Below are positions 5,246 through 24,094 of a DNA stretch of 32,000 bases, piece by piece (positions within the stretch are counted from its first letter, which is position 1; every line of letters begins with the position of its first letter). The notes under the pieces are model-generated. The model saw only the letters and a list, made by a program, of their open reading frames with translations. It did no database searches and was not told the origin of the DNA. The stretch is from positions 60,001 through 92,000 of the forward strand of contig JAEOUO010000002.1 of NCBI GenBank assembly GCA_016839265.1. Reading direction: 5' to 3'. The translations under genes and the position numbers were made by a program. Origin of the DNA: Candidatus Odinarchaeota archaeon. GTDB taxonomy: Archaea > Asgardarchaeota > Odinarchaeia > Odinarchaeales > Odinarchaeaceae.

Positions 5246-5668
5246 GTGATTGTTTTGCCTCAGAGTATTCGTGTTCTTCAAAAAAATCTTAATAATGCTA
5301 GAGCTAAACTTGAAGAAGCTTTTAAAAATATTGTAGAGAAGGAAAAGATGGCTAATTTTTATAAATATTACGCAAATTATTACTGGGTTAAATCATCTGA
5401 TATCCAGATTCAACTCTGGTTGAAAGAATTTGAAGAACTTCAACACCAGAAATCTCTAGTAAACGATAAGACTTCTCTAGAAAACAGAATTAAAAGAGTT
5501 GAAAATGATATTGTTCACATATTATCTAATTTGAAGAAATGTGATGAAGAAGCTGTTCAGAAAAATTGGCGTGTTAGAATAAAATATAAGACTATCCACG
5601 ACTATATTCGCGATGTGTATGGTAAAGCAGCGGAGTTACGTCGTTTACTTAAAAAAATTAGGGTTTAA
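5246..5668 (+). CDS. Hypothetical coiled-coil protein
   Basis: 140-aa ORF with heptad-like charged helices, preceded by a TATA-like AT tract. Confidence 0.65.
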   Translation: MIVLPQSIRVLQKNLNNARAKLEEAFKNIVEKEKMANFYKYYANYYWVKSSDIQIQLWLKEFEELQHQKSLVNDKTSLENRIKRVENDIVHILSNLKKCDEEAVQKNWRVRIKYKTIHDYIRDVYGKAAELRRLLKKIRV

Positions 5669-6009
5669 TTTTTTATCGGAATCATACATAGAAATATTAG
5701 ATCCGTTTCCCCCGTGTTCTTATAGTAATGTGGCTCGTTTGGAGGTATGTATATAGCGGTGTTCTCTTCAACTTCATAAGTTTTACCCCCATTTTTGATA
5801 ATTCCTTTACCTTTTAATATGAAAATTTCATGCTCCCAGTTGTGATTGTGTAAACCTATCTCTCCTCCAGGCTTAACTGTGAAACGTCTCATTGCAAAGT
5901 TTTCCGCTCCGCAGTTATCCCTGTTTATTAGAACCTGGATATAAGTATCTTTAACCCCTTCCTGGGTGACTAATTCCATCTTCACTTCTTTAACCTTTTT
6001 AATATACAT
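5665..6009 (-). CDS. Cupin-domain protein (cupin_2)
   Basis: Cupin motifs GLHNHNWEHEIFILKG and IPPNEPHYYKN; GAGG RBS upstream. Confidence 0.92.
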   Translation of the reverse strand: MYIKKVKEVKMELVTQEGVKDTYIQVLINRDNCGAENFAMRRFTVKPGGEIGLHNHNWEHEIFILKGKGIIKNGGKTYEVEENTAIYIPPNEPHYYKNTGETDLIFLCMIPIKN

Positions 6010-6082: not shown

Positions 6083-6610
6083 TTGCCTCTTACCCCTTTA
6101 CATTATCCTATTGCATTTATAATTTATCACGTTTCCAAAAAAAATCTTAGTTTACCTGTTTTAGTTATATCTTCTATGATATCTGACTTAGAGGTGCCTT
6201 TCATATTTTTTTTAACGGGAGGGGTAATAGACCGCTTAATTCTTCATAGTTTAATAGGAGGAGTATTTTTAGGTGTTCCTTTAACTATACTTGTTTTTTA
6301 CCCTCTTTATAAACTGTTTTTTAAAAAAATCTCTGAAACTGCCTCGTTTAAAATTGAATCCTATAAAAATCTAGTTTTATCATCGGTGTTAGGTGTTTTA
6401 TCGCATATACTTATAGATTCAACTCAACACCCTTATAATCCATTGTTTTGGCCTTTATCCTATGAGTCTTTTTACGGTTTAATTTTATTCGGTGACTTGG
6501 TTATCGCTTCTAATCTCTTATATATGGTTTTCACAGTTTTTACTCTAATAATCATATTATATGCTTTATTGAATCGAAAAGGATTTTTAACTCAAATTTT
6601 CATTGAATAA
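6083..6610 (+). CDS. Membrane protein, DUF4184/metal-dependent hydrolase-like
   Basis: MPLTPLH N-terminus, SMISDLE, LHS, SHILIDS motifs, several hydrophobic segments; GAGG RBS. Confidence 0.7.
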   Translation: MPLTPLHYPIAFIIYHVSKKNLSLPVLVISSMISDLEVPFIFFLTGGVIDRLILHSLIGGVFLGVPLTILVFYPLYKLFFKKISETASFKIESYKNLVLSSVLGVLSHILIDSTQHPYNPLFWPLSYESFYGLILFGDLVIASNLLYMVFTVFTLIIILYALLNRKGFLTQIFIE

Positions 6611-7204
6611 TCTTAGAATAAGATATTTTTTCTTCTTCTTCGGGTTATCCGGGTTATCTATTATAATACCGCCTTTAAAGCCGTTTTTTTTAAATAATTC
6701 TGTTACAAGTTTAAACTCTTTTTCACTTTGAGGGTAAAACTGTATCCCTACACTGCCATCTAATTGAATTAATCTTTTAATCTCTTTAACCACGAGTGTA
6801 TATTTCTGTAACACTTGGTTGCGTGTGCTACCCCAAATCCATTGAAGAGATGAAATAGATATAATGTTTTTGAAAACTCTATCTCTGAATGGAATGTTTT
6901 TAAAATCAGCGTTTAAAATTTCAATATTTTTATTTTTAGCGTATTTTAACATTTCAACAGATATATCTACGCCTACTAGTCTCCCCTTTTTATTAAAATA
7001 ATTTGAGGCGAGCCCTGTTCCGCAACCTAATTCTAGAATAAGTTCATCTTCGAATAGTTGAATTAGTTCACTTATTCTTTCAGCTATTTTCAACTGTGTT
7101 TTAATAATATTTTTATTATACTCGTATGATTTCGCTTTCTCTTCGTTGAAGAAATCTGCAGCGTCTACACCTAGTTTATCCGGCATTTTTAAATCTACTC
7201 TCAT
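6587..7204 (-). CDS. bud23: Class I SAM methyltransferase, Bud23/WBSCR22-like (SSU rRNA guanine-N7 methyltransferase family); likely start ATG 7186
   Basis: ILELGCGTG, GVDIS, plus family-typical segments FFNEEKAKSY, IPFR...ISISSLQW, QFYP and GFKGGIIIDNPDNPKKKKKYLIL. These parallel yeast Bud23 as I recall it (FYND..A.KY; IPFR..FD..ISISAIQW; QFYP; GFSGGLVVDDP...KKYYLVL). Confidence 0.8.
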   Translation of the reverse strand: MRVDLKMPDKLGVDAADFFNEEKAKSYEYNKNIIKTQLKIAERISELIQLFEDELILELGCGTGLASNYFNKKGRLVGVDISVEMLKYAKNKNIEILNADFKNIPFRDRVFKNIISISSLQWIWGSTRNQVLQKYTLVVKEIKRLIQLDGSVGIQFYPQSEKEFKLVTELFKKNGFKGGIIIDNPDNPKKKKKYLILRLFNENLS

Positions 7205-7322
7205 AACTTATTATTTAAGATTCATACGATGTGCGTAAAACTCTAAACTAATATTCGTAGAAAAAGATTTAAATAATATTCGTATCATTATAGCTAAGAC
7301 TTTATTTAAAGTTAGGTTAGAA

Positions 7323-7937
7323 GTGGTTGTCGTGAGCGATATAAAACTGTTTAATAAATGGGATTATGATAGTCTCCAGGTGAATGATTTAGGTCTCCAA
7401 AGGTATATATCGCTGAAGCCGGTTGTTTTACCGCATACAAGTGGGAGACATGAGCATAAACGTTTCGGTAAATCAGAGGTTCCTATAGTAGAGAGGTTTG
7501 TTAACAGGCTTACCGCGCTAGGTTTAGCTAAAGGTAAGGGTGGTAAGCATATTAAGATGTGTGTCGCTACAGGTAAGAAACAGACGGCGATTAACATTGT
7601 TAAAAACGCTTTTGAAATAATTAATCTGAGAACCGGTAAAAATCCTATTCAAGTTTTAATAGATGCTATTATTAATTCCGCTCCACGCGAGGATACTACT
7701 AGAATAAGTTATGGTGGGGTGGTTTATCATCAATCTGTTGACATGGCTCCTCAGAGGAGAGTTGACATGGCTTTAAGATTTCTAGCTCAGGGAGCGTTAA
7801 AAGCGAGTAAGAAAAATTCTAGTACTATTGAAGAATGTGTAGCTGAAGAATTAATTGCTGCTTCTGAAAATAATCCTAAAAGTTACGCTGTTAGTAGAAA
7901 AGAAGAGCGTGAAAGGATAGCTGCAGCGGCTAGATAA
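7323..7937 (+). CDS. rps7: 30S ribosomal protein uS7 (archaeal/eukaryotic type)
   Basis: LPHTSGRHEHKRF, PIVERF, NPIQVLIDAIINSAPREDTTRI, VDMAPQRRVD, RKEERERIAAAAR. Confidence 0.98.
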   Translation: MVVVSDIKLFNKWDYDSLQVNDLGLQRYISLKPVVLPHTSGRHEHKRFGKSEVPIVERFVNRLTALGLAKGKGGKHIKMCVATGKKQTAINIVKNAFEIINLRTGKNPIQVLIDAIINSAPREDTTRISYGGVVYHQSVDMAPQRRVDMALRFLAQGALKASKKNSSTIEECVAEELIAASENNPKSYAVSRKEERERIAAAAR

Positions 7938-7938
7938 A

Positions 7939-7959
7939 CTTTTCTCTAATTATTTTTTT
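7939..7959 (+). terminator. Oligo(T) archaeal terminator after rps7
   Basis: CTTTTCTCTAATTATTTTTTT directly after the TAA at 7935-7937. Confidence 0.45.
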
Positions 7960-8254
7960 AACTTATATTCTTAGATAACTCTATAAGATCTGCGGCTACA
8001 CCTTCTCTTTCAATATAGAGTTTTAGATTTTCAAATCTTACCATTCTCGCTTTATAAGCGTCCACGATTATAGCGAGCTTCGTTACAACATTACATATCT
8101 TGTTTAATAATATGACGTTAACCATTCTTTTTTTGTTATTTATTATCTGCCAGACTTTATCGATGTGAACTTGTATTTCGTCTGCTTTAAACTTTTCTTC
8201 CTCTGATGTAGCTAGTATAGAGCTTATATGTTTCAGCTCTACGTCAATACTCAC
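7958..8254 (-). CDS. Hypothetical helical protein (98 aa)
   Basis: Third of three co-directional small ORFs with short gaps; GGGTG RBS before the GTG start. Confidence 0.65.
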   Translation of the reverse strand: MSIDVELKHISSILATSEEEKFKADEIQVHIDKVWQIINNKKRMVNVILLNKICNVVTKLAIIVDAYKARMVRFENLKLYIEREGVAADLIELSKNIS

Positions 8255-8292
8255 ATCTTACACCCATATTTAGTAGTTATACTATAATACTC

Positions 8293-8529
8293 TTAAAGAT
8301 GTATATATAGCTCGCATTCCCTGTTGTCAGCCACCCTCATAAAAGCTTTTATCCGATCTTCTGTGATCTTTTCTAGTATATTTAAAAATGTTTTAATAGA
8401 ATCTTTATCATAATCCGATTTTTTGAATACTAGTTTAAGTATTTCACACCCGTATCGGTCAACTAGTATATCGCCGTTTTGAACACCCTTAAGCAATTCA
8501 AAAATATTATTAAGCTGCTTCTCCCCCAT
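8293..8529 (-). CDS. Hypothetical protein (78 aa)
   Basis: ATG preceded by AGGGGCATAGGAG, 13 nt after the upstream stop. Confidence 0.7.
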   Translation of the reverse strand: MGEKQLNNIFELLKGVQNGDILVDRYGCEILKLVFKKSDYDKDSIKTFLNILEKITEDRIKAFMRVADNRECELYIHL

Positions 8530-8542
8530 CTCCTATGCCCCT

Positions 8543-8854
8543 CTAATTTATATTATCTAAATAATTCACCAGCTCGCTGAGTGTTTTGTTTTTTAAGATG
8601 TTTACGATAAGCTCCTCCTTTGTTATTGCACCTGCGAAGTATGCTTCTAAAGCTATAGACATATTTATAATGATCTCTGTTAGCGTTTTCGTTTCGACTG
8701 ATTGGAATTTATTTAAATATCTCCATATGTTACTTAATTCTTCATATACACGTCTGGTTTCATCGTGTGACTGTTTTGCTATAAGTTCTCTCGTTTTATC
8801 TGCTATGTTCATGATCTTTTCTTTCACATCGTTTAATATTATTAGCTGGTTCAA
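8543..8854 (-). CDS. Hypothetical helical protein (103 aa)
   Basis: TTG start preceded by a strong GAGGAGGAG RBS. Confidence 0.72.
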   Translation of the reverse strand: MNQLIILNDVKEKIMNIADKTRELIAKQSHDETRRVYEELSNIWRYLNKFQSVETKTLTEIIINMSIALEAYFAGAITKEELIVNILKNKTLSELVNYLDNIN

Positions 8855-9078
8855 TTTTTCTCCTCCTCACATTGGTGTGAATAGCCTTTTTTTATTCCTT
8901 TTTAAACACTTCTACTCATTTAAAAAATTATTATAAAATAAGCTTTAAGTTATCTATAAAGTTTTTCTTCTATCTTAATAGGTTTTTTTATTATTAAAAA
9001 AGCTTTTAATCGTTTTATTTGAATTAAATATCTTTTTTATCGTTTTATTCTATACCATATTGGACTCTTAGCATAATG

Positions 9079-9120
9079 TTTATATCGAACAATTGCACAA
9101 TTTTAATTATAATTATTGTG
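9079..9120 (+). promoter_or_regulatory. Putative promoter (TTTATAT box) and CACAAT-N13-ATTGTG inverted repeat upstream of the Lrp/AsnC-like gene
   Basis: TTTATAT at 9079-9085; CACAAT at 9096-9101 and ATTGTG at 9115-9120 straddle the expected transcription start. Confidence 0.35.
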
Positions 9121-9142
9121 TTTTTTTTCAGGTGAATTTTTT

Positions 9143-10738
9143 ATGCTGAAAGCGGATTCCCTGTCGATTATCGAAACAACAATTAACGGCTACCTTGATA
9201 AAGAGAATATTTGGGCTGAATTTTTAGATTCCCCAGTTATTTTTAATATGGAGCAGGCTCAATTAGCGCGTAGAATATTTAAAAAATATGTTTCAAAAAT
9301 AATTCCTGAGAGTATAATAGAAGATCTTGAATATCTTTTACTCTACAAATTATCTGATGCTACTTTCAGACAAAAATTATTGAAAGAATGGTGTGAGAAG
9401 AAAAATTCAGATGTAGAAGACGCTACTAAAATAACATACGAGTTTGAAGACGGATCCTGTTATAGAGCTGTTTACGATCTTATTCTTTACGATAAAATGA
9501 CTAGTGGCTTGTTTCTCCCCACTATTTTAGAAAACTTGAAAAAATTGGAAAAATATAATTATACTCTTAATCTAAAAGATGCATGTCACTATATTCGACT
9601 CCACTCACTTTTAACTTATATTGTTGAATTAGATACGACTGATATTAAAATCATAGAGTTACTGAGCAAGGACCCTCTTATCTCAAATAATGATGCTGCT
9701 ATTAGACTCGGATTATCTAGAAACACTTTCTCAAACCGTGTAATAAGACTTCAGAAACGTGGTTGTATCTTCTTTAACGGTAGGATAAATCTTGAAAAAC
9801 TTGGTTTAAAAATTTTAACGATTATGACTGATCAAATCCTACCTAAACTTCCTTACATGAGAATTGTACAGGAATTGAGAGGCGGTTCAACATTCTACCT
9901 TTATTCGTTTAATATTCCTGAAGAATTTTTAGTCGCATTCATTGAATTGGTTAAACCTTATATTCGAAACGCTGAATACTGGATTGATGAAGGACCTGGG
10001 CGTCACTCTCTCTCATTACGAAATTCTTACGACACTGTTAATAAAAAATGGGCTTTTAACTGGGAGAATTGGGCACTATGGGTAAGAAAGGTTTTAGACG
10101 AATCATGGCATACGCTTTATGTTTCAGGTGACGTTGAAGAAGCCGGTTTAGAGGAGACTTATGAAGTAGGGAAATTAGATTATGATCTACTAGATTTAGA
10201 GTTATTAAATCAATTAAGCTATGATTTCAAACAACCTATACGTGATATTTCACTTAAACTAAAGGTGTCACCGACTACTGTTTATGATAGAAAGACACGT
10301 TTAATTTCAAAAGGTGTTGTTAAACCAATTTTATTTGTGGAAAATATAGGATTAGACGAACATGTATTTATTAAAATTAAAGGATCTGATAAAATCATAA
10401 ACTCTGTTGAATCTGGTTTATTAGATCTACCGAGCGTCTACATTTTTCGAGTTAGAAATTTAAGAGGTGAAACAGCGCTTAACGCTTATCTTTTTCTACC
10501 TAAAGGTAGTCTTGTAATGGTTGATTACACGCTTAAAAACTATTTAGAAGATATAGGTGAAGAAGTTGATTTCAAACTTTTCTATAGGCTTAAACAAAAC
10601 TACCTCTCTCAAGGGCTCCCATTCACTTTCGAAAATACTTATTTATATAAAGAGAACTTTAAAAAATGGGTTTTTCCGCAAAAAACTATTATTAAAATAT
10701 TAAAAGAAAGTGGTGAACTCCATTTCAGCGGAGTCTAA
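9143..10738 (+). CDS. Large transcriptional regulator with two Lrp/AsnC-type winged HTH domains and an unknown N-terminal domain
   Basis: HTH1 DTTDIKIIELLSKDPLISNNDAAIRLGLSRNTFSNRVIRLQKRG and HTH2 LDLLDLELLNQLSYDFKQPIRDISLKLKVSPTTVYDRKTRLISKGVV, each followed by a beta-rich region. ATG 9143 follows CAGGTGA. Confidence 0.85.
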   Translation: MLKADSLSIIETTINGYLDKENIWAEFLDSPVIFNMEQAQLARRIFKKYVSKIIPESIIEDLEYLLLYKLSDATFRQKLLKEWCEKKNSDVEDATKITYEFEDGSCYRAVYDLILYDKMTSGLFLPTILENLKKLEKYNYTLNLKDACHYIRLHSLLTYIVELDTTDIKIIELLSKDPLISNNDAAIRLGLSRNTFSNRVIRLQKRGCIFFNGRINLEKLGLKILTIMTDQILPKLPYMRIVQELRGGSTFYLYSFNIPEEFLVAFIELVKPYIRNAEYWIDEGPGRHSLSLRNSYDTVNKKWAFNWENWALWVRKVLDESWHTLYVSGDVEEAGLEETYEVGKLDYDLLDLELLNQLSYDFKQPIRDISLKLKVSPTTVYDRKTRLISKGVVKPILFVENIGLDEHVFIKIKGSDKIINSVESGLLDLPSVYIFRVRNLRGETALNAYLFLPKGSLVMVDYTLKNYLEDIGEEVDFKLFYRLKQNYLSQGLPFTFENTYLYKENFKKWVFPQKTIIKILKESGELHFSGV

Positions 10739-22150: not shown

Positions 22151-24094
22151 TTAATGTTCTTCTTTATGTATGTTTAACCGTTTCTCAGCGGCTTCTAATA
22201 TCCCCCCTAACATCATTGAATATGATAAGCCTGCGAACTTAGCCATTTTAGCTAGATGCCCATCCCAACACCAACCTGGGTTAGGGTTAACCTCTAGAAG
22301 CTTCGGAACACCGTTCTCATCTAATCTCCAATCGAACCTAGCGTAGTCTCTGCACTCTAATCTTGTAAAAAGTTTAACACACCATTCAACTATAATATTA
22401 TATGTTTCTGTAGGGATATCTGCAACTATTGTTTTAATATCCCAGTAAGGCGAATCAGGTAACCATTTAGCTTCATAACCGCATATTTTAGGTAACCCAT
22501 CCGGTATAGTGCTATAGTCTTCCTCAGTTATAGGTAGAACTGTATACTCCGGCGGGTTTCCGATTATTCCTACGCTGAGATCCTTCCCTGTGAGAAATTC
22601 CTCTACGAGAATATGCTTGTCATATCCAAATTTATCTCTTATCTCCGATACCGCCGCGATAAACTCTTCTCTATTATAAGCGACGCTTCTCTGAGTTATA
22701 CCGAAGCTAGAGTCTCCGAAATTCGGTTTCACAATCACAGGGAAGTCGAAGCTGATTTCAAAAGTTTTATCCTCAGGTTTAATGAAAACAGCTTCAGGCA
22801 CCGGTATACCCATTTCTCTTGCTACACCTCTTACAAGAGACTTATCATAGCAAATGGCTAAACATTGCGGGCCTGCTCCAGTATAGGGAATACTTAGCAT
22901 TTCAAGTAAAGCTGGCACATGAAGTTCTTTACGCGGATCATTAAAGTAACCTTCATCACATAGATTTAACACTAAATCTATTTTATCCTTTAACTTTATA
23001 AGATCGCTGATAAGCGTGTCATGATCGTTTAGATAAGTGAAATTATAACCTTTTAACGCTCTTAAAGCATCTTTCATCTGGTCTACAGTGTAAATATCAT
23101 CATCATCGAATACAGTAGCAGGTTTCACAGGGTCTCTCTTAGTCGGGTCTCCTAGAATTACAACCACGTTTTTAACTTCAGCTTTAGTTTTTCTTTTAAC
23201 AGGAGACCACTCTTTTTTAACTATCGCGGTTAAAACTATTCTCTGCTCCATCATTCCAAGATCCTGTTTCCTCTTAGAGTCGGTTTCTATCTCTCCTTCA
23301 AAAACCAGCTCAGTGAAACCTGCGGCTGTTAAGAACTTATTTAAATTATCTTTAGTGTAAAGTCTTTCAGCGTAGAATTGATCAGCTAAAACACCTTTAT
23401 TAACATGAGCTACTACTTCTCTGCAAATTAAACGCTGCTCATCTACTGAAAGCGTTCTCTCCCTGCACACATAATGTTTTTTATCAATCCACTCCCATGA
23501 TCGTGGTTGAAAATTCTTTTTCACGTATTCCCCGTCAGCTACATCTATAAGCAGCTTACCCCAAGGTTTTAAAACTCTGAATACTTCTCTTAAAACTTTC
23601 ATATCATCTTCAACAGTTTCAAAGTAGCCGAAACTGTTACCTAAAATCATAACAGCGTCGAATGTATCCGCCGGATAAGGAAGCTTCCTAGCATCCCCCT
23701 CCCTGAATTTCACAGTTAAATTCTCTTTTTTAGCTGTATGTCTAGCTTTTTGAATAAGATAGGAAGAGCGGTCTAATCCCTCCACATTTTTAAACCCGCG
23801 TCTAGCTAATTCAAGCGAATGCCGTCCATGTCCGCAGCATAAATCTAATATCCTATCATCTGGTTGAAGCTTCAAAATTTCAACGAATAAATCAATCTCT
23901 TTAGAAGTGATACTCTGATCTTCAACGACATCTGCATCTGTTTTAAGATATAGCGAAGTGAACAGATTCTTCCACCAGTCAGGTCTCACATACTTCGCTA
24001 AATCATCTATAGGACCTAAAACTTTCACAGGTTTTTTACCGTTCTTCAAAGACTTAGACGGTTTAATTTCTAATTCTTTTTTCATAGACTCCAC
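22151..24094 (-). CDS. Fusion of class I SAM methyltransferase and D-Ala-D-Ala-ligase-like ATP-grasp domain
   Basis: N-half LDLCCGHGRH, GLDRS, GDAR. C-half PYTGAG, DKSL, PVIVKPNFGDSSFGI, LVEEFL, ARFDWR, LEVNPNPG. Confidence 0.9.
   Translation of the reverse strand: MESMKKELEIKPSKSLKNGKKPVKVLGPIDDLAKYVRPDWWKNLFTSLYLKTDADVVEDQSITSKEIDLFVEILKLQPDDRILDLCCGHGRHSLELARRGFKNVEGLDRSSYLIQKARHTAKKENLTVKFREGDARKLPYPADTFDAVMILGNSFGYFETVEDDMKVLREVFRVLKPWGKLLIDVADGEYVKKNFQPRSWEWIDKKHYVCRERTLSVDEQRLICREVVAHVNKGVLADQFYAERLYTKDNLNKFLTAAGFTELVFEGEIETDSKRKQDLGMMEQRIVLTAIVKKEWSPVKRKTKAEVKNVVVILGDPTKRDPVKPATVFDDDDIYTVDQMKDALRALKGYNFTYLNDHDTLISDLIKLKDKIDLVLNLCDEGYFNDPRKELHVPALLEMLSIPYTGAGPQCLAICYDKSLVRGVAREMGIPVPEAVFIKPEDKTFEISFDFPVIVKPNFGDSSFGITQRSVAYNREEFIAAVSEIRDKFGYDKHILVEEFLTGKDLSVGIIGNPPEYTVLPITEEDYSTIPDGLPKICGYEAKWLPDSPYWDIKTIVADIPTETYNIIVEWCVKLFTRLECRDYARFDWRLDENGVPKLLEVNPNPGWCWDGHLAKMAKFAGLSYSMMLGGILEAAEKRLNIHKEEH

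Follow-up and report, generated by a model that had tools for sequence, protein, structure and literature searches.

A short, tail-less Bud23-family methyltransferase in Odinarchaeum, encoded at a labile place beside rps7

The closest described counterparts of the protein discussed here are Bud23 of Saccharomyces cerevisiae (4QTT, 4QTU) and human BUD23-WBSCR22 (6G4W, 7WTW), the N7-methyltransferases of guanine 1575 and 1639 of 18S rRNA, respectively (K19306). Normal 40S synthesis in eukaryotes requires Bud23. In bacteria, RsmG carries out the same chemistry on small-subunit rRNA (16S m7G527) and is dispensable, and archaea possess Trm112-activated methyltransferases, among them Trm9, Mtq2 and Hvo_0019 of Haloferax volcanii and Trm11 of Archaeoglobus, which have the class I fold and the Trm112 platform in common with Bud23. 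The pocket of human BUD23 accommodates G1639 (PMC9723619), and mutations of residues G63 and D82 of this enzyme abolish catalysis (PMC4472018). According to two papers from the field (PMC5372719, PMC6144793), archaea have neither Bud23 nor m7G at this position. In a profiling study, strict filtering assigned BUD23 to the LECA stratum; looser filters led to LUCA, on which the study does not comment (PMC8481954, Table S5). Our literature search, with subscription papers and most supplements lying outside it, returned no report of Bud23 in Asgard or DPANN archaea; the automatic annotation of IMG already names some archaeal members Bud23.

The window, that is the whole stretch of 32,000 nucleotides analysed here (G000:C2:60001-92000), belongs to an Odinarchaeum genome of 1.35 Mb that is 97% complete. 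An open reading frame of 205 codons on its minus strand (6587-7204) had been predicted to encode an archaeal orthologue of Bud23 that shares a divergent promoter region with rps7, the gene for uS7. The upstream ATG at 7204 is not conserved among relatives; because three of them (P0002, P0003 and L154) open with MPDKLG, the ATG at 7186 is the likely start (Table 1). The closest named relative is that of Candidatus Odinarchaeum yellowstonii, at 76% identity. The sequence blocks on which the original prediction was built are present, namely FFNEEKAKSY (residues 18-27), ISISSLQW (115-122) and QFYP (155-158), and so is the C-terminal block GFKGGIIIDNP...KKYLIL (175-197), where the gap after the proline is five residues and not three as first described. 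The long eukaryotic C-terminal tail is missing, as had been noticed: the protein does not match PF12589, which one eukaryotic homologue does match. The head-to-head layout was equally borne out, with 118 bp to the GTG at 7323 and a spacer of probably 145 bp once the starts are refined. uS7 itself is identified by 286 bits against an NCBIfam cut-off of 225, and its gene is the sole copy in the genome, detached from uS12. Rfam RNAs were not found in the window. Downstream of rps7 (7958-10738) lie three small minus-strand genes without a Pfam match and a gene for a 540-residue protein with two AsnC-type HTH domains, all conserved in Odinarchaeia. Further along (22151-24094), a 647-residue fusion appears, as read from its sequence, to join an N-terminal SAM methyltransferase to a D-Ala-D-Ala-ligase-type ATP-grasp domain.

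Table 1. Features at and around the methyltransferase gene, in window coordinates
Feature	Position	Strand	Remarks
Bud23-family class I SAM-dependent methyltransferase	6587..7186	-	199 aa, catalytic domain alone
rps7 (uS7)	7332..7937	+	ORF opens with GTG at 7323; likely start GTG at 7332
TATA-like stretch CTTAAATAAT	7210..7219	-	about 26 nt before the 7186 start; read from sequence
BRE and TATA-like element, GAAAAAG ATTTAAATAATAT	7260..7279	+	oriented to rps7; invariant in three genomes
YdjM/DUF4184 membrane protein gene	6083..6610	+	convergent with the methyltransferase gene, 24-bp overlap
Cupin gene	5665..6009	-	head-to-head with uS7 in the sister family within this order

We compared the protein with Bud23 by sequence, profile and fold. 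The top five chains of a PDB sequence search are all Bud23 or Bud23-like (human, yeast and one other; E 6.5e-27 to 1.8e-19), and the first match after them reaches only E 2e-7. An HMM made from 26 eukaryotic homologues gives 160 bits for the Odin protein, 35 for the next protein of its own genome and 17-71 for the 14 nearest generic methyltransferases. The AlphaFold model (pLDDT 93) has the Bud23-type fold with N-terminal helices and a C-terminal hairpin. Bud23 structures occupy ranks 1-8 of a Foldseek search with this model (TM 0.75-0.86, rmsd about 2 Å; next TM 0.61), and in a VIA structure comparison BUD23 scores Z 25.8 (rmsd 2.1 Å, 194 aligned) against 20.7 for the next chain. The SAM-binding residues are kept, with G62 and D80 aligned with human G63 and D82. 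Residues Tyr-27, Gln-37, Ser-116, Ser-118, Gln-121, Trp-122, Gln-155 and Tyr-157 do not vary in any of the 26 eukaryotic or 3 Odin rows, whereas in the outgroup other residues lead at the positions of Trp-122, Gln-155 and Tyr-157. Gln-37, Ser-118, Gln-121, Trp-122, Gln-155 and Tyr-157 correspond to Gln-32, Ser-118, Gln-121, Trp-122, Gln-157 and Tyr-159 of yeast Bud23, residues around the active site that reportedly take part in guanine binding (Letoquart 2014). That the open reading frame encodes a short but genuine Bud23-family protein is confirmed by sequence, profile and fold, and the topology of the best trees agrees. At the positions of yeast E18, K21, R27 and D112, the Odin protein has K, S, N and K, so that its RNA and Trm112 contacts differ from those in yeast.

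A search of the genome for Trm112, the activating partner of Bud23, found a single gene on contig C1 at about 340.3 kb, unlinked to the methyltransferase gene. It encodes a long form of 171 residues with two CxxC pairs and matches the Pfam model with 38 bits (cut-off 22). For the complex of the two proteins, modelling predicted the β-zipper interface seen in solved complexes, with methyltransferase residues 95-100 lying against Trm112 residues 134-139. The complex scores 0.89, a mark that 58 of 80 solved pairs and 2 of 110 mismatched pairs attain, and the best control 0.01; because one complex of this kind (4QTT) is already solved, the model shows likeness only. Contact agreement between runs was 94% or more and the partner pLDDT 86 or more. 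Co-occurrence with Trm112 is unspecific, since Trm112 matches are present in 199 of 251 Asgard genomes and the protein is a platform for many methyltransferases.

Which guanine could such an enzyme modify? The 16S gene carries a G at the position aligned with E. coli G1338 (G1349, C1:581606, in CATGGAATCCCTAG), which we take to be the position of yeast G1575. To our knowledge this base is universal in small-subunit rRNA, and its presence therefore discriminates nothing. In the archaeal 16S rRNAs studied, which come from organisms without the gene, m7G is unreported at this site (PMC6144793). Elsewhere in the same 16S gene, the E. coli 160 region is extended by about 30-45 nt that form a hairpin whose AT-rich loop varies (L032:1645-1683; G000:C1 about 580402-580440). 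This insertion recurs with differing sequence in two further genomes (G001 and G024) and may be either an expansion specific to Odin or a small intron of the hairpin type.

We propose that this minimal archaeal Bud23 would bind SAM and pair with the Trm112 of its genome through the modelled β-zipper, that its basic surfaces would dock it on the head of the immature 30S subunit, and that G1349 would there be flipped out and methylated at N7. The modification would be an accessory, dispensable tuning beside the P site, and not an essential assembly checkpoint. We consider this reading probable, with considerable room for doubt. The strongest competitor is that the protein is a true guanine-N7 methyltransferase of the Bud23 family which acts on another RNA, either a different rRNA guanine or a tRNA position. 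Identity to eukaryotic Bud23 is only 30-35%, N-terminal basic positions are changed, archaeal Trm112 serves many partners, and the pocket can shift within the family, as the second paralogue of Lokiarchaeia illustrates. However, the Odin copy retains the eukaryote-type pocket column for column, and the genes that recur beside members of the family encode head proteins of the small subunit and initiation factors. We therefore judge another RNA target to be unlikely, although it deserves to be taken seriously.

These neighbours were found in other lineages. Paralogue A of Lokiarchaeia lies head-to-head with eS25 in 26/26 loci of family f9 and in 62/80 GTDB loci, the latter counting as kin because all are Loki-type, with a spacer of about 120-160 bp. 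Paralogue B precedes uS10, and in one genome eS25, A, B and uS10 stand together. On the ribosome, eS25 belongs to the 30S head and is close to the P site (PMC11698992). Copies of the Aenigmatarchaeota type separate aIF2-alpha from Nop10, one copy in Iainarchaeum comes after aIF5A, and the copy of another archaeon lies between uS7 and EF-2. Several relatives have unrelated neighbours and no translation gene nearby, and the placements beside translation genes amount to a handful of independent ones, not dozens. Such neighbours favour a translation-related substrate but do not thereby show co-regulation; those with eS25, uS10, aIF2-alpha/Nop10 and aIF5A are better support for an rRNA target than the pairing with rps7. 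Paralogue B (L033:7081-7887, L034:6221-6859, L035:4821-5456, L036:4535-5197, L046:4700-5359) has an altered pocket, with N121/F122/E155 for Q/W/Q, together with W32 and N36, and may act on another substrate.

The original prediction saw in the rps7 pairing a sign of co-regulated head assembly, to be checked by the synteny in other Asgard genomes. The pair is confined to three genomes (G000, G001 and G024), all of them Odinarchaeum. In the fourth congener (G013), a pseudogene lies between intact ydjM and rps7 (L139:945-1420, on G013:C33); it contains many frameshifts and stops and has lost most of its 5' third. An intact methyltransferase gene (L154; 51% identity, 215 bits) stands beside ydjM without uS7 upstream, and a further locus (L156) has the order cupin, ydjM, uS7 with no methyltransferase at that place. 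Three sister-family genomes (78-91% complete) have the cupin gene facing uS7 directly and yielded no full-length methyltransferase homologue. Synteny of Bud23 with rps7 across Asgard archaea was rejected, as uS7 is absent within 5 kb in all 80 GTDB loci; uS12 and uS7 are still adjacent in one Loki genome. ydjM is a steadier neighbour of the methyltransferase gene than rps7.

The intergenic region was examined for promoters. The BRE and TATA-like element is kept in the fourth congener, where the methyltransferase gene is a pseudogene, and a TATA core is also found upstream of uS7 at the locus without the methyltransferase (L156). The TTTAAA core of the element is palindromic, whereas the BRE-like A-run is on the rps7 side only. 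A single bidirectional promoter for both genes is not supported, as the conserved element faces rps7 and survives beside the pseudogene. From the sequence we infer that the TATA-like stretch ahead of the methyltransferase start is a candidate promoter of its own, which would give a nearly leaderless transcript; AT stretches in two congeners are similar but not identical to it. On this view the place between ydjM and rps7 is a labile one, and the gene there probably has a promoter of its own, back-to-back with that of rps7.

These data bear on the idea of a vertically inherited 30S head factor that is co-regulated with uS7 by a bidirectional promoter and is the direct forerunner of eukaryotic Bud23. 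Three genomes with the head-to-head pair, the palindromic core and the similar spacing at which the Loki copies face eS25 are in its favour, as is the fact that AU tests reject neither monophyly of Odin, Hel and Loki-A (p 0.065) nor that of Odin and Loki-A (p 0.14). However, either gene occurs without the other, the congener pseudogene lies beside an intact promoter, the BRE-like run serves one side alone, the eukaryotic tail is missing, the GC content of the gene ranks at the 3.5th percentile within its genome, and sisterhood of the Odin copy with eukaryotes is rejected (p 0.014). We give this idea little credence. The predicted orthology to a eukaryotic factor stands at the level of the family but not as sisterhood to the eukaryotes, with kin across DPANN and Loki lineages. 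The back-to-back placement with rps7 is local and unstable, and offers no evidence of co-regulated ribosome assembly. The simplest reading of its history is a gain, probably horizontal, in the ancestor of Odinarchaeum and the one close lineage represented by L154, followed by loss in the fourth congener, which fits the low GC of the gene; repeated losses are the alternative.

The distribution of the family among Asgard archaea was surveyed with a 64-row archaeal profile, to which full-length matches scored 150-249 bits and generic enzymes under 92. Full-length matches are present in 3/4 Odinarchaeum genomes, in the Loki families f9 (53/54) and f23 (5/5), often as two paralogues, and in f18; matching contigs connect f9 with Lokiarchaeia. 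The remaining Asgard families searched, among them f6 (0/60), f12 (0/19) and f21 (0/16), gave none. When 1.84 billion representatives were searched, many short archaeal proteins ranked above eukaryotic Bud23 or were interspersed with it, the named carriers being Aenigmatarchaeota, Micrarchaeota, Iainarchaeum and Helarchaeota. The archaeal Bud23 family is patchy, occurring in Odinarchaeum, Lokiarchaeia, Helarchaeota and DPANN.

In three trees the family stands apart from generic methyltransferases with support of 89/97, 98/97 and 99/98. The best trees side with Bud23, as predicted. Trees in which the Odin rows were forced into generic outgroup clades, however, passed the AU tests made on 198 columns (p 0.16 and 0.135); family membership therefore rests mainly on profile, motifs and structure. 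The Odin clade falls among Aenigmatarchaeota-like and Helarchaeota rows on a poorly supported backbone. One locus (L066) has both ydjM and Bud23, and its Bud23 is near Odin in two trees (82/56 and 92/80). A joint transfer of both genes from an Aenigmatarchaeota donor was considered but not accepted, because the ydjM of L066 is only 28% identical (others reach 40-58%) and the third tree drops the grouping.

Some records in this collection have features of their own. A Bud23-like gene on a contig labelled Candidatus Deferrimicrobium (L076) groups with Helarchaeota (100/100), and the contig is probably a misbinned archaeal one. Nine loci titled Hermodarchaeota, Hodarchaeota or Odinarchaeota (L084, L085, L089, L092, L098, L115, L116, L124 and L133) have a Loki-type gene facing eS25 at Loki spacing, and their NCBI labels are probably wrong. 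P0010 (412 aa) and P0025 (382 aa) each contain two matched stretches and are possible tandem fusions of methyltransferase domains. In archaeon UBA543 (L135:4179-5458), two Bud23-like genes lie in tandem; one of them groups with type B, the other with type A.

Two further readings fare worse. The protein might be a catalytically marginal relic that is being lost in Odinarchaeum, as decay in the fourth congener and a four- to fivefold higher dN/dS than in uS7 (0.03-0.04) would suggest. But three genomes, as well as L154 and the partial L158, have an intact gene that retains every SAM and pocket residue, and the dN/dS of the intact Odinarchaeum copies (0.14-0.19) is well below 1, indicating purifying selection, and similar to that of neighbouring ydjM, so that we find a relic very improbable. 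Least credible, and already largely refuted, is a generic small-molecule methyltransferase of the BioC/UbiE kind that bears Bud23-like strings by chance: Pfam gives only generic Methyltransf_11/25 matches, NCBIfam too has generic methyltransferase models alone, and the outgroup positions pass the AU tests, but the curated NCBIfam cut-offs are missed for BioC (53.8 against 184.95 bits) and UbiE-MenG (39.7 against 158.35), the gap to generic methyltransferases extends over full-length sequence, profile and structure, and the protein has a pI of about 9.4 and a KKKKKY loop.

For the methyltransferase on the 30S head that we prefer, the new observations are that the rps7 pairing is labile and that the gene has decayed in an Odinarchaeum congener. 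The pseudogene argues against essentiality for small-subunit maturation in Odinarchaeum, and dispensability is also in line with the lack of full-length matches in most of the Asgard families searched. Intact and pseudogene congeners form a natural loss-of-function comparison, which suggests that it was eukaryotes that made the enzyme essential for assembly. If the archaeal branch is real, the Bud23 enzyme is older than eukaryotes, and a specific m7G mark is predicted that is mappable in cultured Lokiarchaeia. More tentatively, and with doubts that outweigh our confidence, m7G at the P-site guanine, so far regarded as an invention of eukaryotes, might be an ancient archaeal mark made by a tail-less Bud23 of Asgard and DPANN archaea; its genes would recur near those of head proteins (uS7, eS25, uS10) through a role in head assembly, and eukaryotes would later have added the tail and the checkpoint.

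How does the Odin protein compare with the systems already described? RsmG is of a different family, has a different site (PMC5372719) and is absent from the matches of the Odin protein. Hvo_0019 and its kin are much weaker structural matches (Hvo_0019 Z 19.3, 14-18% identity), lack the Bud23 motifs and have other substrates. With yeast and human Bud23, on the other hand, the whole catalytic domain aligns, and the fold, the SAM residues, the S.S..QW and QFYP motifs, the C-terminal hairpin and the putative target G are the same; Trm112 is available in the Odin genome, and the same β3 zipper is modelled. The Odin protein differs in its archaeal host, in an activity that is predicted only, in several basic N-terminal and Trm112-contact positions, in the loss of its gene in one congener, and in being without the WBS_methylT tail. 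This tail is accessory to catalysis: the yeast crystal construct is without it, and among the rows of the eukaryote clade two (P0134 and P0151) end where the tail-less Odin protein ends.
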